DNA of 64,000 bases from Patescibacteria group bacterium (GTDB lineage: Bacteria; Patescibacteriota; Patescibacteriia; UBA2591; UBA4787): NCBI GenBank assembly GCA_028715115.1, contig JAQUSN010000001.1, positions 283,150 to 347,149 on the forward strand, given 5' to 3'. Under the pieces are notes generated by a model. It was not told where the DNA came from, ran no database searches, and worked only from the letters and a program-made list of their open reading frames with translations. Made by a program: the position numbers and the translations under genes. Below, in pieces: positions 923 through 42,062 of the stretch (its first letter is position 1; every line of letters starts with the position of its first letter).

Positions 923-1039
923 TTGGACGCAAGCGCGTAGAAGGTTAGGCGTTTTATCCTTTAATTCGAGGCTTTTTGAGCCTTGATTTTTTATAAAAAT
1001 TTTGCTATAGTGTAAATACAGCCATAAGGAGGCTTTATA

Positions 1040-1600: not shown

Positions 1601-1674
1601 CTCATCCGTCTAGCTCCTGCCGTTTCATTGCGGCGGGAGTCTTTATATTTTTTTAATTTTAAAGAATAAAGAAA

Positions 1675-1692
1675 GAGGCCCGCAGGGGCCTC
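1675..1692. terminator. Bidirectional GC hairpin GAGGCCC-GCAG-GGGCCTC between convergent genes
   Basis: Perfect 7-bp stem, with an A-run upstream and a T-rich tract downstream. Confidence 0.5.
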
Positions 1693-1713
1693 TTCTGGTT
1701 TATATCTGCTCGA

Positions 1714-2469
1714 TCAACCTCCAATGATCGTGCCGATGAACTCCTGGCCTTCCAGGAGCTTCTTCAGATTGTTCAGGTCACCGGAGACGACCGCGACCTG
1801 GATGTTCCACTGCCGGGCCAGTCTGCTGGCTACTGGGTCGAAGGGGGTCGAAAGTCCGGGCGTCCATTCTTTGGGAATGAAGCTCAGATATTGCTCCCAG
1901 GTGAGATGGTCGAACGGCTTGGCGCTTGGGTGCTTCCGGGGGTCTTTATCGAAAACTCTGAGAACGTTGCTCACGTTGATGACCAGGTCGGCCATTGCCG
2001 TGCGGGCCCTCTCCACTGCGCACCAGTCTGTCGAACGGCCCGGCTTAAAACCGTGGCCGATGATTACTGGCTTGCGAGTCTTTACCGCAGCCGAGGGATC
2101 TCTGATCAGCAGACGATAGGCCTGATTTCCCAGGGCTACCTGCAAGAGTCGCGCGTTGAGCACCGTAGCTTCGATACCCACCTGGTCTCGCAGGGCGAGA
2201 ACTTGCCGGGCCTTAGCCAGGCCGTTGTACCGAGAGCTTCTTTGCGCAAGCATCTCGGCAACCCGGTTATAGGCTCTGGCGGTTGATCCACCACCGACCG
2301 TGACCAAATACTGATGGTCGCAGCTATGGTCGATCAAGAGCTCAGCGAACGTGTGGACGAACCAGGGGTCTAGGCTGATGCCCATACCCCGTTTAACGGT
2401 CACCTTCGGGTTAACCATCGAGCCTCCCAAAGAGACGGAGACCCGTCGGCCTACTTTCAGTATTGGCAC
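1714..2469 (-). CDS. pyrH: UMP kinase, archaeal type (amino acid kinase family)
   Basis: Contains VTVGGGSTARAY and GFKPGRSTD...VINVSNVLRVFDKDP, which match the archaeal PyrH signatures (VTGGGSTAR; GGxQPGQST...ATNVDGVYxKDP). GTG start with an AAGGAGG ribosome-binding site. The coding DNA is GC-rich. Confidence 0.55.
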   Translation of the reverse strand: MPILKVGRRVSVSLGGSMVNPKVTVKRGMGISLDPWFVHTFAELLIDHSCDHQYLVTVGGGSTARAYNRVAEMLAQRSSRYNGLAKARQVLALRDQVGIEATVLNARLLQVALGNQAYRLLIRDPSAAVKTRKPVIIGHGFKPGRSTDWCAVERARTAMADLVINVSNVLRVFDKDPRKHPSAKPFDHLTWEQYLSFIPKEWTPGLSTPFDPVASRLARQWNIQVAVVSGDLNNLKKLLEGQEFIGTIIGG

Positions 2470-2587
2470 TAATCCTCCTTTACGGATTTCTATGTTGATA
2501 TTGAAATAATAGCGTTTTTTGCTTGATTTGTCAAGGGATTTAATTAAAAAATTTTAATATTTTTTAATTAAATTTTTGATAACATAA

Positions 2588-2612
2588 AAACCGTGAGTTA
2601 ATCGCGGTTTTG
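2588..2612 (-). terminator. Intrinsic terminator (AAAACCGCG-loop-CACGGTTTT followed by TTTTT on the minus strand)
   Basis: Hairpin followed by a T-run on the minus strand, downstream of CDS 2664-3038. Confidence 0.4.
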
Positions 2613-2663
2613 TTTATAAGCGAACCCTCGGGCAGGACGCCCGAGGGGTTGAAATGAACTCTG

Positions 2664-3038
2664 CTAGACTGCCAGGATGGTTCCTTCAACCACCCCTTTA
2701 TTGAAGACGAGAGCAACGCGAGCGAGTCGCGCCAGTGTCTTGTTGCCAGGGTCGACGTCACGGACCTTTCGGCCATCATGGCACTCCAGTTGACCGAAGA
2801 GGGTCAGCACTCTCTCGTCACTGGCCGCCAGCGGAGAGAGACTTCGAATGCGGATGCCGATTCTTCCGTATTCGCTCTGGAATGTTACGATTGGCTCCTT
2901 CGCCGGCGAACAGACCAAGAGCGTCATTCTGGTTATGAAGGCCACTGCGTCAGGGGAGTAGGTCACGGCTACGCCGAGAGACAGCGCACCTTGCAGCACG
3001 TCTAACTTTTCCTTCGCTGGGCTATCTGTTGTTGGCAT
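2664..3038 (-). CDS. Hypothetical protein (GC-rich ORF)
   Basis: 124-aa ORF with an AAGGAGG ribosome-binding site 4 nt before the ATG. A divergent promoter TTGACA-16-TATAAT lies in 3060-3100 on the minus strand. Confidence 0.4.
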   Translation of the reverse strand: MPTTDSPAKEKLDVLQGALSLGVAVTYSPDAVAFITRMTLLVCSPAKEPIVTFQSEYGRIGIRIRSLSPLAASDERVLTLFGQLECHDGRKVRDVDPGNKTLARLARVALVFNKGVVEGTILAV

Positions 3039-3141
3039 AGATCCTCCTTTGTATGATTATATTATATCATTTCTTTGGCCTTTGTCAATAGACTGCTTGT
3101 CAGGTATATTTTTATCTGTTATAATCCTATTTATTGTTTTT

Positions 3142-3915
3142 ATGATTGAAGTTAAAAATTTAGTGAAAAAATTCGGTAATTTTGTCGCAGTTAATAATAT
3201 CTCCTTTTCAATAGACAAAGGAGAAATTTTTGCATTTTTGGGGCCAAACGGGGCCGGTAAAACTACAACTATAAAAATGTTGACCACCCTGCTTCATCCG
3301 ACTAGCGGCGAGATACTTTTAAACGGTTATAATCCGCTAACGCACCCCAGTCAAGCTCGCTGCTCTTTTGGTATAGTTTTTCAAGATCCGAGCCTAGACG
3401 ATGAATTAACGGTTTGGGAAAACCTAGACTTGCATGGCGTTTTATACAGCGTGGAGAAGAAAATTCGCCGTGAAAGAATGGAAAATTTACTAAAATTAGT
3501 AGAGCTTTGGGACAGAAAAGATAGTTTGGTTAAAACATTTTCTGGCGGTATGAAGCGGCGTCTAGAAATCGCCCGCGGGTTAATTCATCATCCGACGATT
3601 TTATTTTTAGACGAGCCAACGCTTGGCCTTGATCCGCAGACCCGCAATCATATTTGGAATTATATAAAAGATTTAAACGCTAAAGAGAAAATTACAGTTT
3701 TTTTAACCACGCATTATATGGACGAGGCGGATAAAATGGCTAATAAAATTGCCATTATTGATCAGGGTAAAATCAGTGCCCAGGGAAGTTCGGCGGACTT
3801 AAAAAAACAAACAGGCAAGGATTCTTTAGAAGAAGCATTTTTAACTTTAACCGGCCATAATATTCGCGAGGGGGGCGCGGATAAACTAGCCATGATGAGA
3901 ATGTTTCATAGATAG
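3142..3915 (+). CDS. ABC transporter ATP-binding protein
   Basis: Walker A GPNGAGKTT, ABC signature FSGGMKRRLEIA, Walker B ILFLDEPTLGLD. The ORF-track start at 3049 adds a hydrophobic 31-aa extension that overlaps a divergent promoter region, so the internal ATG at 3142 (MIEVKNL) is preferred. Confidence 0.8.
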   Translation: MIEVKNLVKKFGNFVAVNNISFSIDKGEIFAFLGPNGAGKTTTIKMLTTLLHPTSGEILLNGYNPLTHPSQARCSFGIVFQDPSLDDELTVWENLDLHGVLYSVEKKIRRERMENLLKLVELWDRKDSLVKTFSGGMKRRLEIARGLIHHPTILFLDEPTLGLDPQTRNHIWNYIKDLNAKEKITVFLTTHYMDEADKMANKIAIIDQGKISAQGSSADLKKQTGKDSLEEAFLTLTGHNIREGGADKLAMMRMFHR

Positions 3916-4002
3916 GAGTTTGGGTTACTCCGCCTTGGCGGAGTGCTCAAAATTATACCTGCCTGCCGGCAGGCAGGGAAAAAATTTATTCACTTCATTC
4001 TA

Positions 4003-4025: not shown

Positions 4026-4772
4026 CAAGTTATTTATATTCTTTGGTTAAGACAAATTAAAAGATATTTACGGTCAAAATCGAGAATTGTCGGCTCGCTT
4101 GGTCAGCCTTTATTATTTTTAATTGCTTTAGGTTTTGGGTTCGGACCGATTTATCAGCAAGCTGGCGGTGGTAATTATTTGCAATTTTTAACGCCGGGCA
4201 TTATTGCCATGAGTATTTTATTTACCGCGCTATTTTCCGGTATTGAAATAATTTGGGATCGGCAGTTCGGATTCTTAAAAGAAACCATGGTTGCTCCGGT
4301 TTCTCGCCTTAAAATTATGCTTGGCCGGACCTTGGGCGGCGCTACCGTGGCCACTTTACAGGGCTTGATAGTTTTTATTATTTCTATGCTAATAGGCTTT
4401 CACTCAGAGAGGCCAGCTTTGATTCTTTTAACTGTTTTTATAATGTTTTTTATCGCGCTTTTATTTGCTTCGTTGGGTACCGTCATTGCCGCTTTGCTGA
4501 AAGATATGCAAGGATTTCAATTGATTATGAATTTTTTGGTTATGCCAATCTTCTTCTTGTCCGGCGCGCTTTTCCCACTCAAAGGCTTGCCGCCCGCGAT
4601 TGGCACCATTACGAGGTTTGATCCGCTTTCTTATGGAGTAGACGCCCTAAGAGGGTCCTTGATTGTTGGTGGCAGTCATTTCGGTCTGTTAACCGATTCG
4701 ATAGTGCTGGTTTTAATCGTAGCTGCTTTGCTTTATTTGGGCAGTTATTTATTTTCCAAAATGCAGGCTTAA
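4023..4772 (+). CDS. ABC-2 type transporter permease
   Basis: Six predicted transmembrane segments with ABC-2 family topology, immediately downstream of the ATP-binding subunit. Confidence 0.6.
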   Translation: MQVIYILWLRQIKRYLRSKSRIVGSLGQPLLFLIALGFGFGPIYQQAGGGNYLQFLTPGIIAMSILFTALFSGIEIIWDRQFGFLKETMVAPVSRLKIMLGRTLGGATVATLQGLIVFIISMLIGFHSERPALILLTVFIMFFIALLFASLGTVIAALLKDMQGFQLIMNFLVMPIFFLSGALFPLKGLPPAIGTITRFDPLSYGVDALRGSLIVGGSHFGLLTDSIVLVLIVAALLYLGSYLFSKMQA

Positions 4773-4830
4773 AAATTTAGTAAAACTAAAATCGGTTTTT
4801 GTTAAACCGATTTTTAATATATATAATTTA

Positions 4831-7368
4831 TTAGAAAGCAACAGGAACAGGATTAACCAAATTAATATTAACCATTGCTTCGTTATTATTATCAATGTCG
4901 TCGTAGGCTACAATTTTTATTTGATGAGGGCCGGAAGAATATCCGCTTACATTTATAGGGCATGACCAAGGAGCACTATAAGAAATAGCAGCTTGATTAT
5001 TATCAAGGAAGCATTCGACGCGGTTAATTCCGCGCGGCGCGAAAGCGGCGATGTTTACATTAATTAATTGATCGCTAACATAGGCTGCTTCGCTTGGGGA
5101 GGTGATAGTGACTGATGGTTTATTGGCCAAGGTGTGTACGTCATCATATTCGGTTGGCGGCAAATCAGCTTTAATATTATTTTTTGTCATCCAATTACGC
5201 ACGGCTTCTTCCCAGCGGCTATATTGGGGGTCGCTAGACGGATTTATTGGGACTGGGCCGTTAGGATTGTTCTTGTCGACGTATTGCAAAATACTATGAT
5301 AATCATGATAAGATTTTTCTATAATATAACTAGCGGGCGTTAACTCGGTCGCCAGTTTGCCCGACGCTTTATCAATTTTGACCATAGTTTTTCCAGGAAC
5401 ATCGCCAATTAACACTGGATTGCCAGGGTTAACCGGATCTGGCGAGGTAAAATATTCAATAGGTGAATTTGCCAAAGCGCGAACCATGAAATTATGCCAA
5501 ATCGGCGCAGCTACTACAACGCCATCAGCCTGTTTTTTCATTTGAGCGTTGTCATTATTGCCAACCCAAACTCCGCAGGCTAAACTCGGCGTAAAACCCA
5601 TAGTCCAACCATCAACCCAATCATTGGTCGTGCCTGTTTTGGCCGCGACTGGTCGGTCGCCCAAATAAAGAGGCGAGTTGGCGCCGAATATAAATGTTCG
5701 GGCCTGGTTATCAGTTAAAATACTATTAGTTAATCGGGCCACTTGCGTCGGCAAAACTTCCTCAGGTTGATAGTCACTATTCTTCCACTCTTCCAAGACG
5801 TTTCCTTGGCTATCTTCAACTTTCAAAATTGCGCTGGTGGTAATTTTTTTGCCCTCACGCGCCAAGGTGGCAAAGGCTTGAGTATGCTCTAATAATTTTA
5901 CTTCTGCTCCGCCCAGAGCTAGCGATAAACCATAACGACTCGGATCGTTCAGGGTCGTGTAGTCCATTTTTTGCGCTAAGTTTAAAACATTATTTACGCC
6001 AGTTAGGTATAGAGTTTCTACGGCAGGAATATTAAGCGATCCGGCCAGGGCTTGGCGCATAGTGACGGGCCCGCGTTCTTTGCCGTCATAATCATGCGGG
6101 ATATAATTTTTTCCATTTGGCCCGGCTGGACCAAAATTAGTTTCAACGTCAAAGAGCGGCGTATCTGGTGTATAGCCCTTTTCAAAAGCGGCACTATAAA
6201 TGATTGGTTTGATTGATGAGCCGGGTTGTCGCGGGCTTAGGGTCACATTAACTTGTCCATCAATAGAGTCATCAAAGAAATCTTTAGAGCCGACCATAAC
6301 CAGAATTTGTCCAGTTTTAACATCAAGCGCCACCATGGCCGCGTTATTGGCGCCAAAGTTTTTTGCGTTTTTTTCTGCCTGTTTAGTCACTTCTTCTTCA
6401 GCAATTTTTTGTTTTTCAACGTCGAGCGTAGTTGTGATTTTCAGTCCGCCCTGTTCTACCAAGCGTGTGCCGTATTTTTCTGATAATAATTCTTTGATAT
6501 ACATGACAAAATGAGGCGCTAAGATGCTTTCATGTCTGGGCGCTATTTTTTTAAGCGTATCAATATTCTTTGCGGCTTCGGCGCGTTCGTTATTAATATA
6601 ACCATCTTTAACCATTAAATCTAAAATAAAATTTTTGCGGCCGACTAGCTCGTCGCGATGTTCTCCGTTAGGCGAATAATAGGTCGGTGCTTTGGGTATG
6701 GCCGCCAAAAGAGCCGATTCATCCAGGGTCAGGTCGCGGGCTGATTTAGCAAAATACATTTGGCTGGCCTCTTCAATGCCATAGGCATTGGAACCATAGG
6801 GAATCTCATTAAAATACATTTGTAAAATTTGATCTTTAGAGAATTTTTTTTCAATTTGATAGGCTAACAACAATTCTCTAATCTTTCTCGTATAACTTTT
6901 AGTATTGGTTAATAGGGCATTTTTAATGAATTGTTGGGTAATCGTTGAACCGCCTTGCGCTTTTCTTAAATTGATAATATCGGTAATAACGGCCCGAACG
7001 ATACCCCTTAAATCAAAGCCGGGGTGTTTATAAAAATCTTTGTCTTCAACTACGATAGTGGCGTAAACCACGTCGCGAGGAATATCTTGGAGGGGAATAA
7101 GTGTGCGGCGTTGATCGGTAAAAATTTCATAAAGTAATGTTTTGCCGGTGCGGTCATAGATTTTAGTGCTTTGAGCGATCGACCGATCCAATAATTTATT
7201 CGGATTAGGCAAGGTGATGCCTAGCCAGACAAAATTTAAAATTAAAAAAACTACGCCCAAAATAGCCAAAAGTAAAATAAAAAGAAATAATCTTTTCATT
7301 ATTCCGCCTTTGACCTTATGAACGCCTTTAATGGCTTGGCTTCTCCAGTTTGACAGTTTTTTCTTCAT
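4831..7368 (-). CDS. Class A penicillin-binding protein (PBP1A; transglycosylase plus transpeptidase) with a C-terminal extension
   Basis: Transglycosylase motifs (EDKDFYKHPG, GGSTITQQ) and transpeptidase motifs (SxxK-like SIKP, KTG). N-terminal transmembrane anchor. An alternative start at 7299 (MKRLFLF) sits behind a plausible ribosome-binding site. Confidence 0.75.
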   Translation of the reverse strand: MKKKLSNWRSQAIKGVHKVKGGIMKRLFLFILLLAILGVVFLILNFVWLGITLPNPNKLLDRSIAQSTKIYDRTGKTLLYEIFTDQRRTLIPLQDIPRDVVYATIVVEDKDFYKHPGFDLRGIVRAVITDIINLRKAQGGSTITQQFIKNALLTNTKSYTRKIRELLLAYQIEKKFSKDQILQMYFNEIPYGSNAYGIEEASQMYFAKSARDLTLDESALLAAIPKAPTYYSPNGEHRDELVGRKNFILDLMVKDGYINNERAEAAKNIDTLKKIAPRHESILAPHFVMYIKELLSEKYGTRLVEQGGLKITTTLDVEKQKIAEEEVTKQAEKNAKNFGANNAAMVALDVKTGQILVMVGSKDFFDDSIDGQVNVTLSPRQPGSSIKPIIYSAAFEKGYTPDTPLFDVETNFGPAGPNGKNYIPHDYDGKERGPVTMRQALAGSLNIPAVETLYLTGVNNVLNLAQKMDYTTLNDPSRYGLSLALGGAEVKLLEHTQAFATLAREGKKITTSAILKVEDSQGNVLEEWKNSDYQPEEVLPTQVARLTNSILTDNQARTFIFGANSPLYLGDRPVAAKTGTTNDWVDGWTMGFTPSLACGVWVGNNDNAQMKKQADGVVVAAPIWHNFMVRALANSPIEYFTSPDPVNPGNPVLIGDVPGKTMVKIDKASGKLATELTPASYIIEKSYHDYHSILQYVDKNNPNGPVPINPSSDPQYSRWEEAVRNWMTKNNIKADLPPTEYDDVHTLANKPSVTITSPSEAAYVSDQLINVNIAAFAPRGINRVECFLDNNQAAISYSAPWSCPINVSGYSSGPHQIKIVAYDDIDNNNEAMVNINLVNPVPVAF

Positions 7369-12752: not shown

Positions 12753-13025
12753 TAGAGGAAAATTTCCCTCACTTTCTAGTTTTTTTGACATCAACAGGTT
12801 AGTCAAAGATGAATATATATGATGATTTATCTGACAACACAGAAGTGCTTTAAGAAAACTAGAAAGTGAGGGAAAGTCGATTGTTTTTATCTTGCTTCGG
12901 CAGGGTAGAAACAATTTGCCCTAGTTCCAATTTTATTGGAATTATGGTAAACAAGAATGTTGTGGTCGTAAAAGTAGTGGAAATAAAAAGCAAGCTTTTG
13001 ACAAGCTTGTTTTTTATTTAAAAAA

Positions 13026-13102
13026 TGGTGGGCGCACGAGGATTCGAACCTCGGACCTTTACAATGTCAATGTAACGCTCTAACCAACTGAGCTATGCGC
13101 CC
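13026..13102 (-). tRNA. tRNA-Val (anticodon GAC)
   Basis: Reverse complement GGGCGCATAGCTCAGTTGGTTAGAGCG-TTACA-TTGACAT-TGTAA...TTCGAATCC...TGCGCCCACCA. CCA is encoded. Confidence 0.85.
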
Positions 13103-13105
13103 CTC

Positions 13106-13182
13106 TGGTGGGTGTGGGAGGACTCGAACCTCCGACCTCTTCATTATCAGTGAAGTGCTCTAACCAGCTGAGCTACACACCC
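13106..13182 (-). tRNA. tRNA-Ile (anticodon GAU)
   Basis: Reverse complement GGGTGTGTAGCTCAGCTGGTTAGAGCA-CTTCA-CTGATAA-TGAAG...TTCGAGTCC...CACACCCACCA. The promoter TTGACA-16-TATAAT lies at 13196-13223 on the minus strand. Confidence 0.85.
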
Positions 13183-13304
13183 ATATAATTAAATCATTAT
13201 AAATTATTCAGCAGATTTGTCAATTTAATTTTGTTGATAATAATTATAGGAATTATGGCTAGTTTGTCAATTGTGGGGTTTTAAATTTTTGCTATAATTA
13301 ATAT

Positions 13305-14009
13305 ATGTTAAACAAAATCAAAAAAGATTTTTTAAAAGCGCAAGACAAGAAAAAGGCCAAGCTATTGGCTGGATTTTTTAAAACCGGTAAAGGGCAATAT
13401 GGCGAGGGTGACGTTTTCTTGGGCATTATCGTGCCAAAGCAGCGCGCCATTGCCAAAAAATATTCTGATTTATCGCTTATTAATTGCCAAAAATTACTAA
13501 AGAGTAAAATTCACGAATATCGCTTGACAGCGCTTTTAATTTTAGTCGGACAATATAAAAAATCCGATTGGCCGAAGCGAAAAAAGATTTTTGATTTTTA
13601 TTGTCGTAACTTTAAATACATTAATAATTGGGACCTGGTTGATCTCTCGGCGCCAAACATTACCGGCCATTATTTATATAACCAGAGCGGTGGACCCCTA
13701 ATAAAACGCTGGATTAAATCAGATCATCTTTGGACTAAAAGAATTGGACTTTTAAGCACAGCTTATTTTATAAAGAATAAACAATTTAACGAAATTTTAA
13801 GCGCAGCCAGGTTATTATTAAAAGATCGGCATGATTTAATTCATAAAGCCAGCGGTTGGATGTTAAGAGAAGCGGGCAAAAAAGATGGTCAAGTTTTGAC
13901 TAAATTTTTAGACCAAAATTTTAGACAAATGCCGCGAACTATGCTAAGATATGCCATTGAGAAGTTCCCAGAAAAAAAGAGACAACACTATTTAAAGACG
14001 TCAAAATGA
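13305..14009 (+). CDS. DNA alkylation repair protein (AlkD/AlkC-like HEAT-repeat family)
   Basis: N-terminal pattern (KKAKLLAGFFKTGKGQYGEGDVFLGIIVPKQRAIAKKY) typical of the DNA_alkylation family. Confidence 0.55.
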   Translation: MLNKIKKDFLKAQDKKKAKLLAGFFKTGKGQYGEGDVFLGIIVPKQRAIAKKYSDLSLINCQKLLKSKIHEYRLTALLILVGQYKKSDWPKRKKIFDFYCRNFKYINNWDLVDLSAPNITGHYLYNQSGGPLIKRWIKSDHLWTKRIGLLSTAYFIKNKQFNEILSAARLLLKDRHDLIHKASGWMLREAGKKDGQVLTKFLDQNFRQMPRTMLRYAIEKFPEKKRQHYLKTSK

Positions 14010-14392
14010 AAATTAAACATATAAATTTAAATTTTTCTAAAGCTAATACTGATAAAGCAGCTAAAATTAAACACATTTCTTTGGTTAAGAACAAAGAAAT
14101 TGGCTATTATGTTGCCCAGGTTGATAATTTTGTTCAGGCTCATTATCATAAAAAGGGCGATGAAATATATCATATTTTGAAAGGGCGAGGATTGATTTAT
14201 CTTGGCCGATTAACTAAAAATTTAGTTCGCTGGGAAAGACCAAAAAAAATTTATAAAGATGATGTTATTTTTGTGCCGGCCGGTTACGCTCATTGTTTAA
14301 TGAATTCCAGGAAAGAGCCATTAGTTCTTGCTTTTATTTGTCCGCCCTTACATTTATCGAAAGATAGAAAAGTTTTAAATAATCCCAAGTAA
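14006..14392 (+). CDS. Cupin-like small protein
   Basis: Beta-strand-rich 128-aa sequence with a His-containing motif (VPAGYAHCLMN). The start overlaps the upstream stop. Confidence 0.3.
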   Translation: MKIKHINLNFSKANTDKAAKIKHISLVKNKEIGYYVAQVDNFVQAHYHKKGDEIYHILKGRGLIYLGRLTKNLVRWERPKKIYKDDVIFVPAGYAHCLMNSRKEPLVLAFICPPLHLSKDRKVLNNPK

Positions 14393-14422
14393 TTTTTAAA
14401 AGTTAATCATTAAAATATTTTT

Positions 14423-14737
14423 ATGATGTTTGACGATAAAAATTTTTTACAAGAAGTTCTAAAAGATAAGGATTTGGTCTTGGTTGATTTTTTTGCTTCT
14501 TGGTGCGGACCATGCCAGGCTTTGATTCCTATTATTGAGGAATTGACTAAAGATTATGAAGGTAAAGTAAAAATTGGTAAATTAAACGTTGAAGAATCTC
14601 TGGAAACTGCGCAAAATTATGACGTGATGAATCTTCCGACTTTGATATTTTTTAGAGACGGCAAAGAGATCGAGCGCGTATTAGGCTTTCATTCAAAAGA
14701 AGAATTAAAAGCCAAAATCGACAATCTACTAAAATAA
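14423..14737 (+). CDS. trxA: Thioredoxin
   Basis: WCGPC active site. Confidence 0.85.
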   Translation: MMFDDKNFLQEVLKDKDLVLVDFFASWCGPCQALIPIIEELTKDYEGKVKIGKLNVEESLETAQNYDVMNLPTLIFFRDGKEIERVLGFHSKEELKAKIDNLLK

Positions 14738-14751
14738 TTTTATATAATTTT

Positions 14752-15675
14752 ATGCCGGAAAATAATTATGATTTGATTATTATTGGCACCGGTGCGGCTG
14801 GGTTAGCTGCCTCGATTTACGCTTCACGTTATAAGATTAACCATTTAGTCATCGGTCAGAAAACCGGTGGCCTGGCGGCTTGGTCGCATATGATTGAAAA
14901 TTATCCCGGGACCCTGACTATTACCGGACAAGATTTAATGAATAAGTTTATGGAACACGCCAAACATTACGGCGCGCCAGTGATTGAATCGCAAGTTTTG
15001 GAAGTTAAAAAAGAAAATGATTTATTTAAAGTTACTTTGCCGGACAATAAAATTTTTTGGGCTAAAGCTTTGGTTTTAGCCTTGGGAACTGAACGCAAAA
15101 AACTCGGCGTGCCAGGCGAGCAAGAGTTTTGGGGCAGGGGGGTGACTTATTGCGCGACTTGCGATGCGCCGCTTTATAAAAATCGCACCGTGGCTGTAGT
15201 GGGCGGTGGTGATTCAGCCTTGACCGCAGCCTTGCTTTTGGCTAGCTATGCGCAAAAAGTATATTTAATTCATCGTCGCGATCAATTTGCCGGTCAAGAA
15301 ATGTGGCAACATAAAGTGGCAGAAAATTCTAAAATTGTTAGCATTTTTTCGACCAATATCTTGGAAATAAAGGGTGATAAAGTAGTCAAAGAGTTAATTC
15401 TCGACCGTCCTTATGAAAACAGCACATCGCTGCCAGTTAACGGAGTTTTTATAGAGATTGGTTCTACGCCCAGTATTTATTTAACTAAACAGCTTAACAT
15501 CGACCTAGATGATCATCAATATATAAAAGTAGATAATAATAACCAAACCAATCTGGAAGGAGTTTTCGCCGCTGGCGACGTAACTAACCAAAACCATTTG
15601 AAGCAGATTTTAACGGCAGCCAGTCAGGGGGCAGTGGCCGCTTATAGCGCTTATAAATTTTTGTTTAAAAAATAA
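14752..15675 (+). CDS. trxB: Thioredoxin-disulfide reductase
   Basis: FAD motif GTGAAGLAAS, redox-active CATCD, and NAD(P)-binding GGGDSA. Confidence 0.8.
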   Translation: MPENNYDLIIIGTGAAGLAASIYASRYKINHLVIGQKTGGLAAWSHMIENYPGTLTITGQDLMNKFMEHAKHYGAPVIESQVLEVKKENDLFKVTLPDNKIFWAKALVLALGTERKKLGVPGEQEFWGRGVTYCATCDAPLYKNRTVAVVGGGDSALTAALLLASYAQKVYLIHRRDQFAGQEMWQHKVAENSKIVSIFSTNILEIKGDKVVKELILDRPYENSTSLPVNGVFIEIGSTPSIYLTKQLNIDLDDHQYIKVDNNNQTNLEGVFAAGDVTNQNHLKQILTAASQGAVAAYSAYKFLFKK

Positions 15676-15676
15676 T

Positions 15677-16237
15677 ATGTTGGTTTTGCCAGTCTCGCCG
15701 AAAAATATCAAGTTAGCCAGGCAAATTATCAAGAAGGGCGGGATTATCATCTATCCGACCGACACGATTTACGGCTTAGGCGCTGACATTTTTAATCAGC
15801 AAGCCGTTAAAAAAATCATAGACATTAAAGGCAGAAAGAAGACAAATCCGATTTCAGTGATGATTTCGGATTTTTTGCAAATAAAAAAAATAGCCTCAGT
15901 AAACGCGCGACAAGCTAAAATAATTAAAACATTATTGCCCGGGCCGTTTACAGTCATTCTAACCAAGAATAAATCAATTTCTGATCTATTAACCGCTAAG
16001 CGCAAAACAATTGGTGTTCGCTGGCCAAAATTAAAAATTTGTCAGGCTTTGGCAAAAAATTTGCCGATTACTACCACTAGCGCCAATTTATCAGGTCAGC
16101 CGAATACTTTAAGCGTAAATAAATTAAATAAAATTTTTAAAAACAAGGTAGATTTAATGCTAGTTGGCGGAAAAATGTCTGGTCGCGCTTCGACTATTAT
16201 AGATTTGACGGTTGGGCCATTTAAAATTTTGAGATAA
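15677..16237 (+). CDS. tsaC: L-threonylcarbamoyladenylate synthase (YrdC/Sua5 domain)
   Basis: IIYPTDTIYGLGAD motif of YrdC. Confidence 0.75.
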   Translation: MLVLPVSPKNIKLARQIIKKGGIIIYPTDTIYGLGADIFNQQAVKKIIDIKGRKKTNPISVMISDFLQIKKIASVNARQAKIIKTLLPGPFTVILTKNKSISDLLTAKRKTIGVRWPKLKICQALAKNLPITTTSANLSGQPNTLSVNKLNKIFKNKVDLMLVGGKMSGRASTIIDLTVGPFKILR

Positions 16238-16253
16238 ATTTTTTTAAAAGGCA

Positions 16254-16280
16254 AAAAGAGCCCTTGGGGGCTCTTTTTTG
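16254..16280 (+). terminator. Intrinsic terminator AAGAGCCC-TTGG-GGGCTCTT followed by TTTTG
   Basis: 8-bp stem plus a T-run. The same stem family recurs at 32268, 33461 and 34755. Confidence 0.6.
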
Positions 16281-16349
16281 TTTTCTTGACAAAAAATAAA
16301 ATTTTGCTAAGATTTAAACTTCTTTACAAGGACCTAACAAGGAGCTATC

Positions 16350-16769
16350 GTGGCGAAGCGACGTTACTTGTCTGACCATTTCAATCAGGATCTGAAAGGA
16401 TTCAGGATTCTGGAGGTTTGCTATCTAAGAGAGCCGCCTACATATAACTCTCCTCGGGTAGAGATGCTTTGTCGGAAAACGCGCAGGGGCGCCGGACCGG
16501 TGATCTTCTTTCCAGAGGGGTTGTTGCACGGCGGGCTTTCCGTTGGACGAGCATTCCGCGGCTGGCACTTGCACAAGGGCTATGCCCTGGTGCACCTAAA
16601 GACAGGCAGAGCCTTCTGGCTTAACGGGTTTCAGAGCACAGAGCGGTATCCGTCCAGACCGGCCGGGCTGTGGGTTACTAAGCGGCGCTTAGCCGCTTGG
16701 CGTCGGCAAGGGCGCCTGCCTCTTACTGCCGGCCTGAGGTCTGTCAGCGATATGAGTGGAGTCGATTAG
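16350..16769 (+). CDS. Hypothetical protein (GC-rich cassette ORF)
   Basis: 139-aa ORF at about 57% GC. The promoter is TTGACA-16-TGcTAAGAT at 16288-16318. A terminator lies at 16790-16823. Confidence 0.45.
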   Translation: MAKRRYLSDHFNQDLKGFRILEVCYLREPPTYNSPRVEMLCRKTRRGAGPVIFFPEGLLHGGLSVGRAFRGWHLHKGYALVHLKTGRAFWLNGFQSTERYPSRPAGLWVTKRRLAAWRRQGRLPLTAGLRSVSDMSGVD

Positions 16770-16789
16770 GGAGGTGGTATCATATTCAC

Positions 16790-16823
16790 GGGCGCTGGTT
16801 TGCACCAGCGCCCTTGGTTTTTT
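16790..16823 (+). terminator. Terminator GGGCGCTGG-TTTGCA-CCAGCGCCC followed by TTGGTTTTTT
   Basis: 9-bp GC stem plus a T-run. Near-identical to the terminator at 17717. Confidence 0.65.
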
Positions 16824-16969
16824 AAAAAAACAATTCTTGACAAAGCCATAAAATTTTGCTAAAATATCAATATTACTGGGTGAGCCCGGTATACCTAAGT
16901 CATGAGGGTAAAATCATGACAAGGTCCAAACTGCTTTCAGAGGTGCGCCTTTGAAGCAAAGGAGGATAC

Positions 16970-17701
16970 ATGTCTGATGGTGCCAATGTCGTTGAGTGCC
17001 TTGCTCGCACTACGCCGCTTTCCAGCGCAGAATGGGCTGCGTTGGTAGAGGCTCGCCGTCGTCTCTTTTCTCGGGTGGTTGCGAAATGGCGAACTCTGCC
17101 AAGTATCGGGGATCAGAAAGGTCTCTATGTCGAAGGCCATCCAAGTCCAATCAATGGCGGTTTGCTAAGGAGCAGGATCGTCTATGTATTTGGGGAATTA
17201 GGCAGCACGACCGTTTCGGAGACCGGGGAAGCGCAGGGCGTATTCGAGCATATCGGCCATGAGTTGCCAAAGCGCCGGGTCAATGAAGATCTTCCGTTGC
17301 CCTCGGATCTAGATCCCGATATAATAGGGACTCTTCGCTACTGGGCCTTAATGAGGAATGGTGCCTGGGCTCTAATAACCGTTTTTTACGTAACAGGTTA
17401 CGGTTATAAGAATCGGGGCAAGGACATCGCATTTAGGGTCGTAATTCAGCATTGCGCTTTCGACGAGCTACTCAAAGAGGCGAAGATTCATCCACGACAG
17501 ATCTGGTGGCGGTTAAGAATAGCTTTTGCCGAGGCCATCAACGCCACTCGACGCCGTGCTCAAGTCGCAGAAGAGCTGGCTCGTCGCATAATGGCTGAAG
17601 ACGAGCTGCTCAGGGTTTCGCCAGGAGAAAACGAAGCAGCTCCTACAGACGCCCTGCGGCACTTTGTCCGTGAGCTCGATAATCCCAGCAACGACGACTG
17701 A
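16970..17701 (+). CDS. Hypothetical protein (GC-rich cassette ORF)
   Basis: 243-aa ORF at about 57% GC. The promoter is TTGACA-17-TGcTAAAAT at 16839-16869, followed by a roughly 100-nt structured leader and an AAGGAGG ribosome-binding site. Confidence 0.45.
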   Translation: MSDGANVVECLARTTPLSSAEWAALVEARRRLFSRVVAKWRTLPSIGDQKGLYVEGHPSPINGGLLRSRIVYVFGELGSTTVSETGEAQGVFEHIGHELPKRRVNEDLPLPSDLDPDIIGTLRYWALMRNGAWALITVFYVTGYGYKNRGKDIAFRVVIQHCAFDELLKEAKIHPRQIWWRLRIAFAEAINATRRRAQVAEELARRIMAEDELLRVSPGENEAAPTDALRHFVRELDNPSNDD

Positions 17702-17716
17702 GGGAGTCGTAGAATC

Positions 17717-17749
17717 GGGCGCTGGTTTCGGCCAGCGCCCTCGGTTTTT
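17717..17749 (+). terminator. Terminator GGGCGCTGG-TTTCGG-CCAGCGCCC followed by TCGGTTTTT
   Basis: Same stem as the terminator at 16790. Confidence 0.65.
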
Positions 17750-17797
17750 AAAAAAACAAGGCTGTTAGGCCTTATTTTTTAAAAACAGATCTTATAT

Positions 17798-20050
17798 TTA
17801 GAGCTTCATAGACAAGAGCTTGGAAATTCCGTCTTTCATCATGGTCACGCCATACAAAGTATCGGCTGATTCCATGGTTTGGCGATTATGAGTAATGACG
17901 ATAAATTGAGTTTTGTGAGCCAATTCACGTAAAATATTAGAAAAGCGAGAAGAGTTTTGTTCGTCGAGCGCAGCGTCAACTTCGTCTAAGATAACGAACG
18001 GTGGTTTATTGATGGCAATGATGGCGCAAATTAAGGCGAGCGAGGTTAGCGCTTTTTCGCCGCCGGACAAAGCTTCGATATTTTTTAACTTTTTCCCTGG
18101 CGGATTAGCCATGATTTCGATATTAGTCACTTCTTCTTTTTCCTTAGACTCGGTTTCTTTTTCTTTTGCTTCTTCTGTTGGTTCGTCTTCTTTTTTTTCG
18201 GCTGGGTCACTTTCAACTTCTTCTATTACCGATTTTTGCAAAACTATCTTGGCCTTGCCGCCATTAAAGAACACGCCAAAATAATAATCAAACTTATCAT
18301 TAATTTGATGAAAAGTTTTATTAAACTGTTCGTCCATTTTTTCGTTCAATTGTTTAATGACTTTATTGAGGGATTGTAGTGCGCCGCGCAAATCTTGGAT
18401 TTGGTTGGTCAAAAATTCATAACGCTCTTTGGCTTCCGGATATTCTTTGGTGATTTCAGGATCAATGCCGCCAATAAGTTCAAGCTGCCTTTTTAATTCC
18501 TGAACTTGGCCGTAACAATTTTCATCATCACCGGTGTTTTCGGTTTGGCTGGATAAAATTTGTTCAGGATTTTCGACGTTCATCTCCCGTTTAATTTCTG
18601 CTATTAGATCTTCTTTGCGCGTATCGATTTTAGCTTGATCGACTTCGAAAACATTAAGTTCATGGTTAATGGCATTTAATTCATTTTGTTTATGTTGGGC
18701 TTTTTGCTGCAGCTCAAAGAAGGCCCGGCGTTTTTCCTGTTCGCTCTGGGCGAAGTTTTTGAGTTGCTGGTTAATGCCGTCGATTTGTTCGTTTAATTTT
18801 TTAATTTCTTGGTCTAGGCCTTGAATTTCCTGCTCGATTTTTTCTATTATACTGGATTTGTTTTGCTCTGGTGTCTGCTCCGGTTCACCCGATAAATAAG
18901 CCAGTAAGTTATTGATTTTTTGCTCTAAGCGGTTAACTTGGTCTTTTAGTTCTGACAAATTATCAAGGGAATTTAGTGTTGCCAAGGCGGTATTTAATTG
19001 GTTGTTTAATTGTTTAATACTTTCCAGGTCGGTGATGATTTTATTGGTATCCAGTTCTTCTTCTTGGCCTGATTCTGGTTGCTTGGCCCTTTGCTGTTCA
19101 ATAATTAATTTTCCTCGCCAGACGGTAATTTGTTCTAAATATTTATTTTTTAATTCAACTAATTTTTGTTGATCTTGCTGCAAGCGGCGATAATTATCAT
19201 CTATATTTTCTTTGGCGATTGATTCAAGTTGTTTTTGCAGGACTTCGAGTTCGGTCTCGAGTTTTTTTTGTTGGTTAGCGTTATCGACCGATTGTTGAGA
19301 AATATTTTTTGATTGTGCTTCGAGATTTTGCCAAAGGCCGCTATAATATTTTTTTTGTAGAGCCAAAAGCTCTTCTTCGAATTGTTGCCGGCGTTCGAGT
19401 TTTTTTATTTGACGAGTCAAAGATCTCATGCGCGGTTCAAGCTCTTGAAGCGCTACTTCGGCTTGCTGGAGATTATTCTCGGCTTTTTCTATTTTTCGCA
19501 GTGCTTCATCTTTTTTAATTTGATATTGGCGAATGCCGGTCGCTTCATCAAAAAAGTTTTTTCTTTCGGCCGGAGAGCTGTGTAAAATAGAGTCGATCAT
19601 GCCCTGGCTGACGATACTATAACTTTTTTGTCCAAAGTTGGCTTGGGCTAAAAGCATTAAAATATCTTGTAAGCGGACTCGAGCATTATTTAAAAGATAT
19701 TCTCCTTCGCTCTGGCGATTGACACGGCGGAGAATGGTAAACTGGCGATATTCAATGGCCGCCTCGTCTTGTTCGTTATTAAAATGCAAGGATACTTCAG
19801 CGGAATTGAGTCGGCCCTTTTTATCTGAACCGGAAAAAATAATATCTTCGGCGCGTTTGGTGCGCAAGCTTTTCATGCTTTGTTCGCCCAAGCCCCAACG
19901 GATAGCTTCAAGAACATTGCTTTTTCCCGAACCATTGGGACCCAAAATTGCGTTAATGCCATAAGAGCCGTCCTTGGGTCTAGGGAACTCCAAAACTGTT
20001 TTGTTGGCGAAAGATTTAAAGCCGTTAATTTCTAAACGCTCGAGATACAT
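17798..20050 (-). CDS. smc: SMC-family chromosome segregation ATPase (short, 750 aa)
   Basis: N-terminal MYLERLEINGFKSF...GPNGSGKSN...IRWGLGEQS, a long coiled coil, and a C-terminal LSGGEKALTSLAL...ILDEVDAALD. Confidence 0.65.
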   Translation of the reverse strand: MYLERLEINGFKSFANKTVLEFPRPKDGSYGINAILGPNGSGKSNVLEAIRWGLGEQSMKSLRTKRAEDIIFSGSDKKGRLNSAEVSLHFNNEQDEAAIEYRQFTILRRVNRQSEGEYLLNNARVRLQDILMLLAQANFGQKSYSIVSQGMIDSILHSSPAERKNFFDEATGIRQYQIKKDEALRKIEKAENNLQQAEVALQELEPRMRSLTRQIKKLERRQQFEEELLALQKKYYSGLWQNLEAQSKNISQQSVDNANQQKKLETELEVLQKQLESIAKENIDDNYRRLQQDQQKLVELKNKYLEQITVWRGKLIIEQQRAKQPESGQEEELDTNKIITDLESIKQLNNQLNTALATLNSLDNLSELKDQVNRLEQKINNLLAYLSGEPEQTPEQNKSSIIEKIEQEIQGLDQEIKKLNEQIDGINQQLKNFAQSEQEKRRAFFELQQKAQHKQNELNAINHELNVFEVDQAKIDTRKEDLIAEIKREMNVENPEQILSSQTENTGDDENCYGQVQELKRQLELIGGIDPEITKEYPEAKERYEFLTNQIQDLRGALQSLNKVIKQLNEKMDEQFNKTFHQINDKFDYYFGVFFNGGKAKIVLQKSVIEEVESDPAEKKEDEPTEEAKEKETESKEKEEVTNIEIMANPPGKKLKNIEALSGGEKALTSLALICAIIAINKPPFVILDEVDAALDEQNSSRFSNILRELAHKTQFIVITHNRQTMESADTLYGVTMMKDGISKLLSMKL

Positions 20051-20191
20051 GAAGGGGAAATATTAATTAAACTCACGAATAGAACATTTTAACATAAATA
20101 AAATTTTTGACAATCAAAAATTGGACAATATTGACAAAACGAGCATAAAAGATACAATAAAAACGTCACTATAGAGTGGCAAGGAGACAAA

Positions 20192-20599
20192 ATGAAGATA
20201 GTTACAATCCACCGAGCAGCGAAGCTTAGAGCTTTTCTGGCTCATCATGCCGGGAAAGATGATCTCGGCAACAGGACGTATCGACTCGCTACCAGGAGAG
20301 ACATTCGAGCACACGCTCCTTTGTTCTGGGTTCCGATATATCGGGGTCTTCGCTTCAGCGGGGAAGCCCGTTTCGATGATCTCTACGGCGGTATGTATGA
20401 GATTATACTAGGTGACGATGCTTTCGTCGGCGAATATGTTCAGTTTTCGGTCGTCGATAGCGTCATTGACGGCGATCCGGCCTTGAGGCGGTCAGGTCTG
20501 ATAGAGGTAGACTTTGACTATATGACCGAAGAGGCCCACCCAGCGTCTGCAAATTCGCCGCACCTGACTGACCTGTTCCTGGTCGAGGACAAGTCGTAG
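20192..20599 (+). CDS. Hypothetical protein (GC-rich cassette ORF)
   Basis: 135-aa ORF. The promoter is TTGACA-16-TACAAT at 20132-20158, with an AAGGAG ribosome-binding site. Two further small GC-rich ORFs follow at 20609-20746 (45 aa, Lys/Arg-rich) and 20753-20809 (18 aa), each with its own ribosome-binding site. Confidence 0.4.
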   Translation: MKIVTIHRAAKLRAFLAHHAGKDDLGNRTYRLATRRDIRAHAPLFWVPIYRGLRFSGEARFDDLYGGMYEIILGDDAFVGEYVQFSVVDSVIDGDPALRRSGLIEVDFDYMTEEAHPASANSPHLTDLFLVEDKS

Positions 20600-20853
20600 G
20601 AGACAAAGTGCCCAAGACAAAGAAAGCGAAGAGATACAAACCTCGTCGATCAAGACCTCGAGGTATGAGCGTTATGGAGCGAAACGAGGTCAGGTGGCGG
20701 GAGGAGCACGTTTATCCCTATACCTTCCCAGTTCGCTAGAACAAGGAGGCAAAATGCGCATACGCGCTGGTCCCGTCGACTTTGGTCGGCGGGACTTGCT
20801 TTTAAAATAAAAAACGAGCGTAAAGCTCATTTTTGTTTTAACTTGATTTTTAA

Positions 20854-21534
20854 TTAAATTTTGCTCAAGCCGTTTTTAGCAGCATCAACTTCGGCTTCGA
20901 ACTTACTGGTACCCTGGCCCTTGGAAATCAATTTATCGCCGAGGAATAAGCCAACTGTGAATTTTTTTTCATGGGCTAAGCCGGTTTCTTTCAGAACTTT
21001 GTAAGAAGGAGTGATTTTTTGTTTAGCTTGAGAGATCTCCTGAAATTCGCTTTTCGGATCTTTGTATAATTTATTTTTAATGATTTTCGGCAATTTGATC
21101 AAAAGATTTTTACTGATGAATTCTTTGGCCCTTTTCGCTCCTTGGTCCAAATAAATTGCGCCGATTAAGGCTTCAAAAGCATCCGCCAAAATTACGTTAC
21201 GCGCTTTGCCGGTTGACTTGGCTTCGCCGCGGCTTAAAAATAAAAATTCATTTAAACCGAGCTCTTTAGCTAGAGCCGATAAACTATCTGTATTAACCAA
21301 ACTGGCGCGCCAGGAGGTTAATTCGCCTTCGGGGTTATCGAATTTATGGTAAAGATATTCAGTGACGATTAATTCTAAAACCGCGTCGCCTAAAAATTCC
21401 AATCGTTCATTGTGTTCTATCTTTTCTCGAGAGTGTTCGTTAACATAAGAGCGGTGGGTCAGGGCCTGTTTTAAAAATTTAATGTTTTTAAACTTTAATT
21501 TCAGCTGATTTTCCAGTGTATTCAAATTTGTCAT
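20854..21534 (-). CDS. rnc: Ribonuclease III
   Basis: ERLEFLGDAVLELIVTEYLY signature and a C-terminal dsRBD. Confidence 0.85.
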   Translation of the reverse strand: MTNLNTLENQLKLKFKNIKFLKQALTHRSYVNEHSREKIEHNERLEFLGDAVLELIVTEYLYHKFDNPEGELTSWRASLVNTDSLSALAKELGLNEFLFLSRGEAKSTGKARNVILADAFEALIGAIYLDQGAKRAKEFISKNLLIKLPKIIKNKLYKDPKSEFQEISQAKQKITPSYKVLKETGLAHEKKFTVGLFLGDKLISKGQGTSKFEAEVDAAKNGLSKI

Positions 21535-21538
21535 AAAA

Positions 21539-21991
21539 CTAAGCTTCTTTTTTAATTAGGCCATCCTTTAACATATCTTCGTAGAGAGCGCCTAAGACGC
21601 CATTAACGAATTTGCCACTCGAATTTCCACCGAAAACTTTAGCTACTTCAATGGCTTCGTTAATCGCCACTTTAGGCGGAGTTTCTTTCAAGAATAACAT
21701 TTCATATAAACCGATGCGTAAGACATTGCGGTCGATTAAAGTAATTTGATCAAGCGGCCATTGCGAGGCGTATTTTTTTAAGTAGCCATCAATAGTCGAT
21801 AAATTTTTTATAATTTCATCCACCAATAAATAAGCGAAATCATTTTTTTCGTTGGCATTTAAACCGGCCCCCTGGATATTTTGTTCGATAATTTCTTTTT
21901 TTTCCTGCTCTTTTATTTTCTCAAATCCAAGGAAGTCCAGCTCATAAAGCGTTTGCAGAGCAATGGTGCGACAAAGATGCCGATTGCCCAT
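21539..21991 (-). CDS. nusB: Transcription antitermination factor NusB
   Basis: N-terminal R-rich [10 protein letters not shown] motif and NusB size. Confidence 0.6.
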
Positions 21992-22155
21992 AGGAATAGA
22001 AGTTATCCCGACGCTGCAGTCAAAAATTAAGAGAAGGTCGGGATCCCGACTTTACGTCGGGAGAAAATATCAGCCCAAGGCCTGCCTACTGGATAGGTGG
22101 GCCGACCTCAGCCCAAGACTGATGAGCCTCGGGCTCACGCTCTCGGGCGGGGAAA

Positions 22156-41744: not shown

Positions 41745-42062
41745 AGATTTTGTTGCTTAATTTTTTTGTTAAATTTGCTGGCGAAAATACAAAACCCGCC
41801 GCCAAGCGAGACTTGCGCCTCCTATACCCTTTCGGATATAGACCACGTGTATGGAGCCTGAACGACGGGTTCAGTCAGTATACACGTGGCTTTATTGCCA
41901 TGCCCACAGAGATTCCATGGGTTTAGGCAACTTAATTGTTGATTTTATAATAACATAAAGAAATAAAAAGGGTAGCCCAGTGAATAAATTGTGTAAATTT
42001 TCGGCTTCGTTTAGCTTGACAAATGTAAAAAATGCTATAAAATATAATAAACAAGGTCCAAA

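Follow-up and report, generated by a model that had tools for sequence, protein, structure and literature searches.

Two abutting single-gene units between tsaC and smc in a Patescibacterium share near-duplicate predicted promoters and terminators, and one of them belongs to an undescribed protein family with a candidate leader RNA hairpin

Integron cassettes are normally promoterless and served by a common promoter, Pc; they end in an imperfect attC hairpin with R''/L''-L'/R' cores and have intI and attI nearby. At the RNA level, the 5′ stem–loop of ompA is a stabilizer of the mRNA 5′-end and the MS2 replicase hairpin is a translational operator, and type III toxin–antitoxin systems (ToxIN-like) carry tandem RNA repeats of ∼34–36 nt and a terminator before a ToxN/AbiQ endoribonuclease. 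Morons, the phage elements of Hendrix and Juhala, are defined by their own promoter, their own terminator and a deviant GC content (PMC3594210), and in Patescibacteria most horizontal gene transfer takes place inside the phylum, with small gene sets and tRNA-linked islands (PMC12455944). Here we analyze a block of two small single-gene units, each built around one open reading frame (ORF1 and ORF2), that is flanked by two housekeeping genes, tsaC and smc, in a Patescibacteria group bacterium. The window, by which we mean the whole 64-kb stretch of DNA that was analyzed (contig JAQUSN010000001.1, positions 283,150 to 347,149), comes from an AT-rich genome of ∼38% GC. Our preferred reading, to which we give a probability of roughly 0.55, is that the block consists of two autonomous monocistronic units of foreign composition inserted between tsaC and smc, that the second unit belongs to a protein family (the ORF2 family) that moves as a unit, and that its regulatory shell of promoter and terminator was copied onto ORF1.

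The two units occupy positions 16283–16832 and 16834–17757 of the window, separated by a single base. Unit 1 consists of promoter P1 (16286–16313, +; direct repeat D2, with TTGACA, a 16-nt spacer and TAAGAT in a TG-extended −10), a Shine–Dalgarno sequence (SD; AAGGAG at 16339–16344, +, as read from the sequence) 5 nt ahead of a GTG start, the orphan ORF1 (16350–16769, +; 139 amino acids (aa), isoelectric point 11.2, 57.4% GC) and terminator module T1 (16789–16832, +; arms GGGCGCTGG/CCAGCGCCC, loop TTTGCA, tail TTGGTTTTTTAAAAAAACAA, hairpin at 16790–16813). Unit 2 begins with P2, a paralogue of P1 and of the type found in the ORF2 family (16837–16865, +; TTGACA, a 17-nt spacer and TAAAAT, also with a TG-extended −10), and continues with a leader that contains hairpins, an SD of the same strong kind as elsewhere in the family (AAAGGAGG, 16958–16965, +), ORF2 itself (PHV78_01585; 16970–17701, +; 243 aa, 53.4% GC) and terminator module T2 (17716–17757, +; arms as in T1, loop TTTCGG, tail TCGGTTTTTAAAAAAACAA, hairpin at 17717–17740). 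A preliminary description, made by a model from the letters of the window, had reported two tandem cassettes of this kind with near-identical promoters and terminators around unrelated GC-rich reading frames, and every promoter, ORF, leader hairpin and terminator was recovered where it had been placed.

The likeness of the two shells is, by sequence comparison, beyond chance. T1 and T2 are 88% identical over 41 nt, with identical 9-nt stem arms and three differences in the 6-nt loop, while 0 matches to the terminator pattern are expected from 100 shuffles of the window. P1 and P2 have TTCTTGACAAA and ATAAAATTTTGCTAA[G/A]AT in common, exact matches to ATAAAATTTTGCTAARAT in the window are confined to these two promoters, and so is the spacer ATAAAATTTTGC among the window's 15 TTGACA-type promoters, those of rRNA and tRNA genes included. 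This spacer rules out that the promoters look alike merely as an organism consensus, although the TGCTAnAAT extended −10 is general and not peculiar to P1 and P2. Each 3′ element has perfectly complementary GC-rich 9-nt arms and runs at once into Ts (10 pairs and a 4-nt loop in our scan), and both are predicted to be plain intrinsic terminators. In contrast to these shared ends, ORF1 and ORF2 gave nothing significant against each other by BLASTP, blastn (word size 7) or tblastx, and a hidden Markov model (HMM) of the ORF2 family run on the six-frame ORFs of the window matched ORF2 only, which rules out diverged or frameshifted duplicates. Since three of six loop positions have diverged between T1 and T2, the copying of the shell was not recent and, for the same reason, the ORFs are not simply diverged duplicates.

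Both ORFs are strong compositional outliers, synonymous sites included. Their GC contents are 0.57 (ORF1) and 0.53 (ORF2) versus 0.365–0.42 in seven neighboring host genes, and at third codon positions (GC3) they reach 0.62 and 0.52 versus a median of 0.37 among 49 long host ORFs. We compared the locus with six species-representative genomes whose SMC proteins are 46–50% identical to that of the window. The order nusB-rnc-smc is kept in all six, and neither ORF1 nor ORF2 is found in any of them. Four of these relatives (L007–L010) have a single terminator and one common convergent gene, not tsaC, 70–200 bp past smc; the site of the block is therefore a breakpoint of synteny specific to this lineage, and the earlier picture of an otherwise tight tsaC-smc interval does not hold. 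What survives of the suggestion of a hotspot for foreign genes is the lineage-specific locus, the foreign composition of the ORFs and a third GC-rich unit in the rnc-smc gap (see below), but not the analogy to integrons that came with it.

That analogy fails on each point that we examined. Like integron cassettes, the units are small single-ORF modules of foreign composition, arranged head to tail, with hairpin ends and differing content. Unlike them, each has its own predicted promoter and ends in a perfect GC stem with a U-tract instead of attC, and the adjacent genes are tsaC and smc rather than an integrase gene; no attC cores (GTTRRRY/RYYYAAC) are visible in the block sequence, and of three integron features (promoterless genes, attC, adjacent intI/attI) the block has none. 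The resemblance to phage morons is closer: both units have a predicted sigma-70 promoter and factor-independent terminator of their own, a GC content unlike that of their neighbors, a position between two otherwise adjacent genes and a small accessory cargo. They differ in that the flanks are chromosomal, that no homologues were found in IMG/VR, GenBank phages or plasmids, and that the ORF2 unit bears a family-conserved 5′ RNA hairpin. By this comparison the units would be morons in Hendrix's sense, but chromosomal rather than in a prophage. As for the islands of PMC12455944, other copies of the ORF2 family and another GC-rich island of the window likewise adjoin tRNA genes, whereas the family unit is only ∼0.8 kb and lacks an integrase, and the block has no flanking repeat and lies 3.8 kb from the nearest tRNA gene, unlike a tRNA-integrated island. 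A promoter–hairpin–ORF–terminator architecture is not described in PMC12455944. Moron-like units are already known from phages; what is new here is an unannotated accessory family of Patescibacteria in the form of a self-contained unit with a covarying leader hairpin.

ORF2 is, as judged from its sequence, certainly a gene, since its open frame exceeds those of shuffled sequences (p = 0.0005) and it has a homologue of equal length at 54% identity (P0002). A profile search with these two proteins returned 104 cluster representatives (at the 50% identity level) among 1.84 billion, 22 of them at E ≤ 1e-10; a metagenome scan with the same two-sequence alignment found nothing and succeeded with a 7-member alignment. 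Family members are mostly 200–220 aa long, compared with 243 aa for ORF2, which the family HMM matches at E = 5e-55 and which keeps the invariant columns W22, R29, G90, W133 and G145 (ORF2 numbering). The family is further marked by the motifs LIEARR, FTLPxLG, SLKTQGIF, IWGLTRxGxW and GYKDRGYERA and by a long C-terminal helix, and all named members come from a 'Patescibacteria group bacterium'. Neither ORF1 nor ORF2 has a match in Pfam, PHROGs, PADLOC or NCBIfam; 28–29 family members have no consistent match in these libraries and no relationship in the PDB, and the family is absent from IMG/VR viral contigs, GenBank phages and plasmids, with no homologue among the folds of BFVD. The family is thus previously undescribed and unannotated, and it is sporadically distributed in Patescibacteria.

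The earlier statement that neither protein matches a known family therefore stands for the annotated libraries, but ORF2 does have relatives. Of the checks that had been proposed for the proteins, profile search uncovered the family, while structure prediction gave models of low confidence, with AlphaFold predicted local distance difference test (pLDDT) scores of 37.7 for ORF1 and 57.6 for ORF2, the latter model having been built from 2 sequences only, before the family alignment. The best fold match of ORF2, an NTF2-like sheet, is weak and comes from this low-confidence model. In the PDB, one weak profile match (6n4v, E = 0.012) was to a chain named 'Coat protein', which we take to be that of phage PP7; it disappeared when another family alignment was used and was rejected.

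The leader of ORF2 is 104 nt long, ∼60 nt longer than those of other family members, and as a whole it folds better than any of 200 shuffles (z = −3.12). Its 5′-terminal hairpin, UACUGGG-UGAG-CCCGGUA (16874–16891, +), starts 8 nt past the −10 and is weakly matched by the family model (E = 0.083). A middle hairpin (16894–16924, +), with a UCAUGAG...CUCAUGA-type core at 16899–16920, is specific to this locus and appears in both the minimum free energy and the centroid structures. The third, UUUCAGAGG-UGCG-CCUUUGAAG (16935–16956, +), is the one conserved in the family (covariance-model E = 0.0026) and is separated from the SD by 1 nt and from the ATG by 13 nt. Nearly all ORF2-family members have an upstream hairpin whose apex reads GG-U[A/G/C/U]CG-CC, 13–25 nt ahead of a strong SD. 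It starts 6–11 nt past the −10 box in most loci, which would place it at the predicted 5′-end of the mRNA.

The stems of this hairpin covary, with pairs such as CUGAAAGG/CCUUUCAG, GAGAGG/CCUCUC, GGCAGG/CCUGUC and CAGCUGG/CCGGCUG in different members. Across 25 distinct hairpins we counted 30 double-sided changes versus 9.2 ± 2.5 in shuffles, with 0/500 shuffles reaching 30. Of the alignment cells, 86% are paired versus 41–54% in shifted registers, a percentage inflated by the way the alignment was gathered, namely by seeking hairpins, with the register fixed by a conserved GGUNCGCC core. Run over 346 kb on both strands, a covariance model had nearly all its matches on the sense strand of family genes, either ahead of the start codon or across it, and it had none in the relatives that lack an ORF2-family gene. 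In many members a second copy spans the start codon (GAGGG-UAUG-CCCUC), so placed that its loop holds the AUG and its stem the 3′-end of the SD; examples are at 1239–1254 in locus L022 and at 4990–5013 in both L034 and L032. This copy may explain the conserved N-terminus Met-Pro-Ser/Thr, and it is lacking in ORF2 and P0002 (N-terminus MSD...). At gathering score, Rfam finds nothing in 16200–17800 and, in 12 family loci, only tRNA, rRNA and an intron; in E-value mode the block gives only sub-threshold noise. We therefore describe the hairpin as a new candidate cis-regulatory RNA motif with covariation support. In sequence terms it is a family-wide conserved RNA element, a point that the preliminary description, which had noted hairpins in the leader, overlooked.

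Because of its G·U pairs and its orientation-specific loop, the features of the hairpin argue for a role at the RNA level and not as a DNA operator. It resembles hairpins of the ompA and MS2 types in that it is stable and lies a few nucleotides from the predicted transcript start and, in many members, recurs with AUG in the loop; unlike them it is absent from Rfam. A type III toxin–antitoxin system was considered and rejected: there are one or two hairpins rather than a tandem array, and neither ORF2 nor 28 relatives have a Pfam or PADLOC match to ToxN/AbiQ.

To see in which settings the family occurs, we examined ∼40 ORF2-family loci, with subsets used for single counts. Across 27 loci there is no conserved neighbor gene; family genes sit among housekeeping genes and small ORFs without Pfam matches, in non-syntenic positions. 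Their promoters are of the sigma-70 type with TTGACA, a 16–17-nt spacer and a TGn-extended −10, and in most members, as judged by eye, a terminator-like GC hairpin with a T-run follows within ∼90 nt of the stop; the terminators differ from T1 and T2 and the promoters are only generically similar to P1 and P2. The difference between family-gene and host GC3 ranges from −0.13 to +0.30, with the family gene higher in 16 of 20 loci. In a subgroup of five loci (L022, L025, L026, L027 and L028), nucleotide identity of 82–87% is limited to ∼790–930 bp, a stretch that starts with an insulating hairpin ahead of the promoter and ends shortly beyond the terminator. These cassettes differ in their flanks, with tRNA-Leu(UAA) adjoining the cassette in some loci and tRNA-Ala and tRNA-Phe on either side of it in another, and the cassette in L022 is inverted with respect to that in L027, relative to flank patches that both loci have in common.

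A tRNA gene lies within 800 nt of the family gene in 9 of 24 non-redundant loci versus ∼15% expected (binomial p ∼0.007), a count in which several loci have the same tRNA-Leu flank and thus represent fewer independent cases. Loci near tRNA genes (Leu, Ala, Ser, Arg, Ile) are L023–L026, L027, L030, L031, L036, L041, L042 and L047. In L027, a group I intron (RF00028, 59.9 bits) at 4464–4693 lies ∼300 nt upstream of the family gene, and since tRNA-Leu(UAA) is uninterrupted in L022, L024, L025 and L041 where L027 has the intron, L027 presumably represents a Patescibacterium whose tRNA-Leu(UAA) contains an intron. L034 has tandem 336-nt repeats at 3074–3940, with copies of tRNA-Trp and partial tRNA 3′-ends, ∼1 kb upstream of its family gene. 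In L014, a 60-nt element, GTGTCCCATTTGTCCCA...TGGGACAC, occurs three times at 4503–5914, each time ahead of one of three consecutive small units of which the last is the ORF2-family gene, and L016 carries a 58-nt upstream element twice (4843–5873), again ahead of consecutive small units. Regulatory sharing among neighboring small units therefore recurs around the ORF2 family.

Taken as a mechanism, our preferred reading would run as follows. Each unit would be transcribed from a near-consensus sigma-70 extended −10 promoter, translated from a strong SD and insulated by an intrinsic terminator, all of them predicted. Unit 2 would be a horizontally acquired copy of an ORF2-family cassette, whose architecture is a promoter, a 5′-terminal GG-UNCG-CC hairpin, a strong SD, an ORF of ∼210 aa and a terminator, and the family would spread horizontally as this whole ∼0.8-kb unit. 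In unit 1 the orphan ORF1 would have acquired copies of the promoter and terminator of unit 2 and, because these are copies of the same elements, would be expressed in parallel with unit 2. We infer that the copying went from unit 2 to unit 1 because P2 resembles the family promoters and ORF1 has no relatives. The hairpin in the sense RNA would most likely serve in 5′ mRNA stabilization, as a translational operator, or both, and the start-codon hairpin would fit repression by a hairpin-binding factor, perhaps the encoded protein itself.

Several points weigh against this reading. Promoters and terminators were called solely by their match to consensus, and ORF1 may not be a real gene. ORF2 is among the members that have no start-codon hairpin, and the gathering of the hairpin alignment favors pairing, as said above. 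The best available relative has an SMC that is 50% identical, a distance at which the comparison displays neither the insertion between tsaC and smc nor its timing directly. Neither mobility machinery nor a target duplication was found at the borders of the block: beyond low-complexity A/T runs there are no target-site duplications or terminal inverted repeats, and a Pfam scan limited to 13000–22000 of the window found no recombinase-like gene. Finally, on the 1.35-kb contig of P0002 the local layout resembles that of the block: an upstream gene ends 145 nt ahead of the family gene, and a gene in convergent orientation follows at 106 nt, which may point to vertical descent in a small clade.

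The borders themselves are formed by predicted terminators of the flanking genes. tsaC (Sua5/YciO/YrdC; 15677–16237, +) stops at 16237 and its host terminator, an 11-bp stem followed by a T-run, lies directly past the stop (16253–16278, +). The convergent smc (17798–20050, −) stops at 17798, and the right border is the hairpin AAGGCCTAACAGCCTT (17758–17773, −), which our scan listed on the plus strand. Read as its reverse complement, it runs into GTTTTTTT, so that the minus strand has a T-run there; it is probably the terminator of smc.

The block is not the only such place in the window: counting it, three intergenic sites together contain six or more single-gene units rich in GC. One further unit lies between smc and rnc (20131–20796, +), with TTGACA, a 16-nt spacer, TACAAT and a terminator at 20769–20796. 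Its ORF3 (135 aa) has no homologues in family libraries and is followed by mini-cistrons of 43 and 18 codons, and all three starts come after AGGAG[A/G]CAAA[A/G]TG. The rnc-smc gap is 45–220 bp in the five relatives with an intact smc match versus ∼800 bp in the window, and the ORF3 unit is therefore an insertion. Three more units stand beside tRNA-Gln (960–3040). Behind the tRNA-Gln(ttg) gene at 733–805, its 3′ 68 nt recur at 94% identity (749–816 versus 866–933), and the island after this copy holds three genes (an ORF at 1040–1600, +; an archaeal-type UMP-kinase-like gene at 1714–2469, −, matching TIGR02076 at E = 9e-40, below the cutoff; and an ORF at 2664–3038, −), all of which have a TTGACA promoter, an SD and a terminator to themselves. 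The L014 island with its ORF2-family gene likewise begins just past a tRNA-Gln(ttg). Elsewhere in the window, a LOOT RNA (Rfam RF03000) lies at 41808–41929 (−), scoring 81 bits versus a gathering score of 46.4. In one relative (L011, 4747–7365), smc seems interrupted, with residues 1–44 at 4747–4878 and residues 15–320 only from 6460, which suggests a ∼1.5-kb insertion or duplication at the smc 5′-end.

Among the other explanations, we first considered that unit 1 is non-coding, ORF1 being a chance frame in GC-rich DNA and the unit yielding a non-coding transcript or being what decay has left of a duplicated or captured cassette flanked by copies of P2 and T2. ORF1 has no homologue among 5.8 billion proteins and no relatives in phages, plasmids, IMG/VR or any fetched locus, and neither it nor ORF3 has relatives across about 300 kb of ORF2-family loci. 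The protein is missing from the NCBI annotation, with Logan as its only source; it abounds in Arg, Gly and Leu and is very basic, and its AlphaFold model has a pLDDT of 37.7. Stop codons are also rare in DNA this rich in GC, shuffled ORF1 sequences having on average 86 open codons and at most 158. Nevertheless, the open frame of 143 codons is longer than expected (p = 0.01 in 2000 dinucleotide shuffles), and the second codon position has the lowest GC in the frame, as in real genes. The AAGGAG, placed 5 nt before the GTG, comes right after P1, and the stop lies 20 nt ahead of T1. Nor does the body behave as an RNA: with a folding z of −1.4, no better than shuffles, the ORF1 RNA is not unusually structured, and together with the lack of an Rfam match, at gathering score and in E-value mode, this rules out a structured-RNA reading of the GC-rich bodies. 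ORF1 is thus probably coding, and a non-coding unit 1 seems doubtful to us.

A role in conflict was also conceivable, with one or both proteins acting in anti-phage defense, abortive infection or toxin/immunity and the hairpins restraining a harmful product. Single-gene units that occur sporadically, move horizontally, deviate in GC and bring their own promoter are typical of defense or moron cargo, one family locus has as neighbors a restriction-modification gene of the MmeI type and an excisionase-like gene (HTH_17), and the NTF2-like sheet is a fold common among immunity proteins. This fold match is the weak one from the low-confidence model, however, and ORF1, ORF2 and 28 family members have no consistent match in PADLOC, PHROG, Pfam or NCBIfam; there is no conserved partner gene, and most neighborhoods are housekeeping. 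The toxin/immunity, anti-phage and host-interaction functions floated in the preliminary description drew no support from these libraries, the PDB or fold searches, and we regard a conflict system as unlikely.

Less probable is a stock of cassettes, common to a population, whose ends are portable, making it a recombinase-light counterpart of integron arrays. Homologous or site-specific recombination would exchange or stack ORFs between a 5′ arm, TTCTTGACAAA...ATAAAATTTTGCTAARAT, and a 3′ arm, CGGGCGCTGG...CCAGCGCCCTYGGTTTTTAAAAAAACAA. Such a pool would account for unrelated ORFs between near-identical ends and for the segment between ORF1 and ORF2, which is exactly one 3′ module, one base and one 5′ module, as stacked units would give. 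The repeated elements of L014 and L016 and the presence of at least six GC-rich units at three sites of the window point the same way. Yet each end has only two copies in the 64-kb window. Other ORF2-family loci end in terminators of other kinds and have promoters that resemble P1 and P2 in general terms only, the arms span just about 30 and 45 nt, and there is no adjacent recombinase. In IMG/VR the exact terminator motif has a single match, on a viral contig (L013), which is due to chance: it is an unrelated hairpin without a T-tail in a GC-rich phage.

It is similarly improbable that both are old, lineage-specific genes that were inherited vertically, their promoter and terminator having been duplicated in tandem or converted locally and their GC content reflecting amino acids or selection. 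The apparently similar local arrangement of P0002 fits such a history, as do the occurrence of infB within 5 kb in several ORF2-family loci and in the window, the host-like, AT-rich promoter and terminator parts of both units, and the diverged T1 and T2 loops, by which the duplication was not recent. Against it, the GC3 of ORF2 is 0.15 over the host median, and that of ORF1 more, when long residence should have made both drift toward the host, and family GC3 departs from that of the host in both directions. The family is also sporadic (104 clusters among 1.84 billion representatives) and non-syntenic, near-identical cassettes occur in different contexts and orientations, and the relatives have no such genes beside smc. 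An assembly chimera is ruled out, because five assemblies from separate sequencing runs are 100% identical through every junction of the block.

Beyond our preferred reading, one may imagine the ORF2 family as a minimal, recombinase-free mobile unit that passes from genome to genome, often close to tRNA genes, whose protein regulates its own translation by binding the hairpins at the 5′-end and the start codon of its mRNA and whose shell is copied onto orphan or de novo ORFs, with the window as a snapshot of this process. We offer this as speculation and think it improbable as a whole.

Patescibacteria have tiny, streamlined genomes in which accessory genes are mostly unannotated. In practical terms, the analysis provides a new family and an RNA motif for annotation, a flag for GC-deviant single-gene islands and candidates for experiments. 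If the preferred reading is true, foreign genes would enter these genomes as ready-to-run units of promoter, leader, gene and terminator, following the logic of morons without a phage. The ORF2 family would then be a testable new protein family of more than 100 sequence clusters with a candidate cis-regulatory RNA motif, and the duplicated shell around the orphan ORF1 would be a natural example of a reading frame gaining expression signals.

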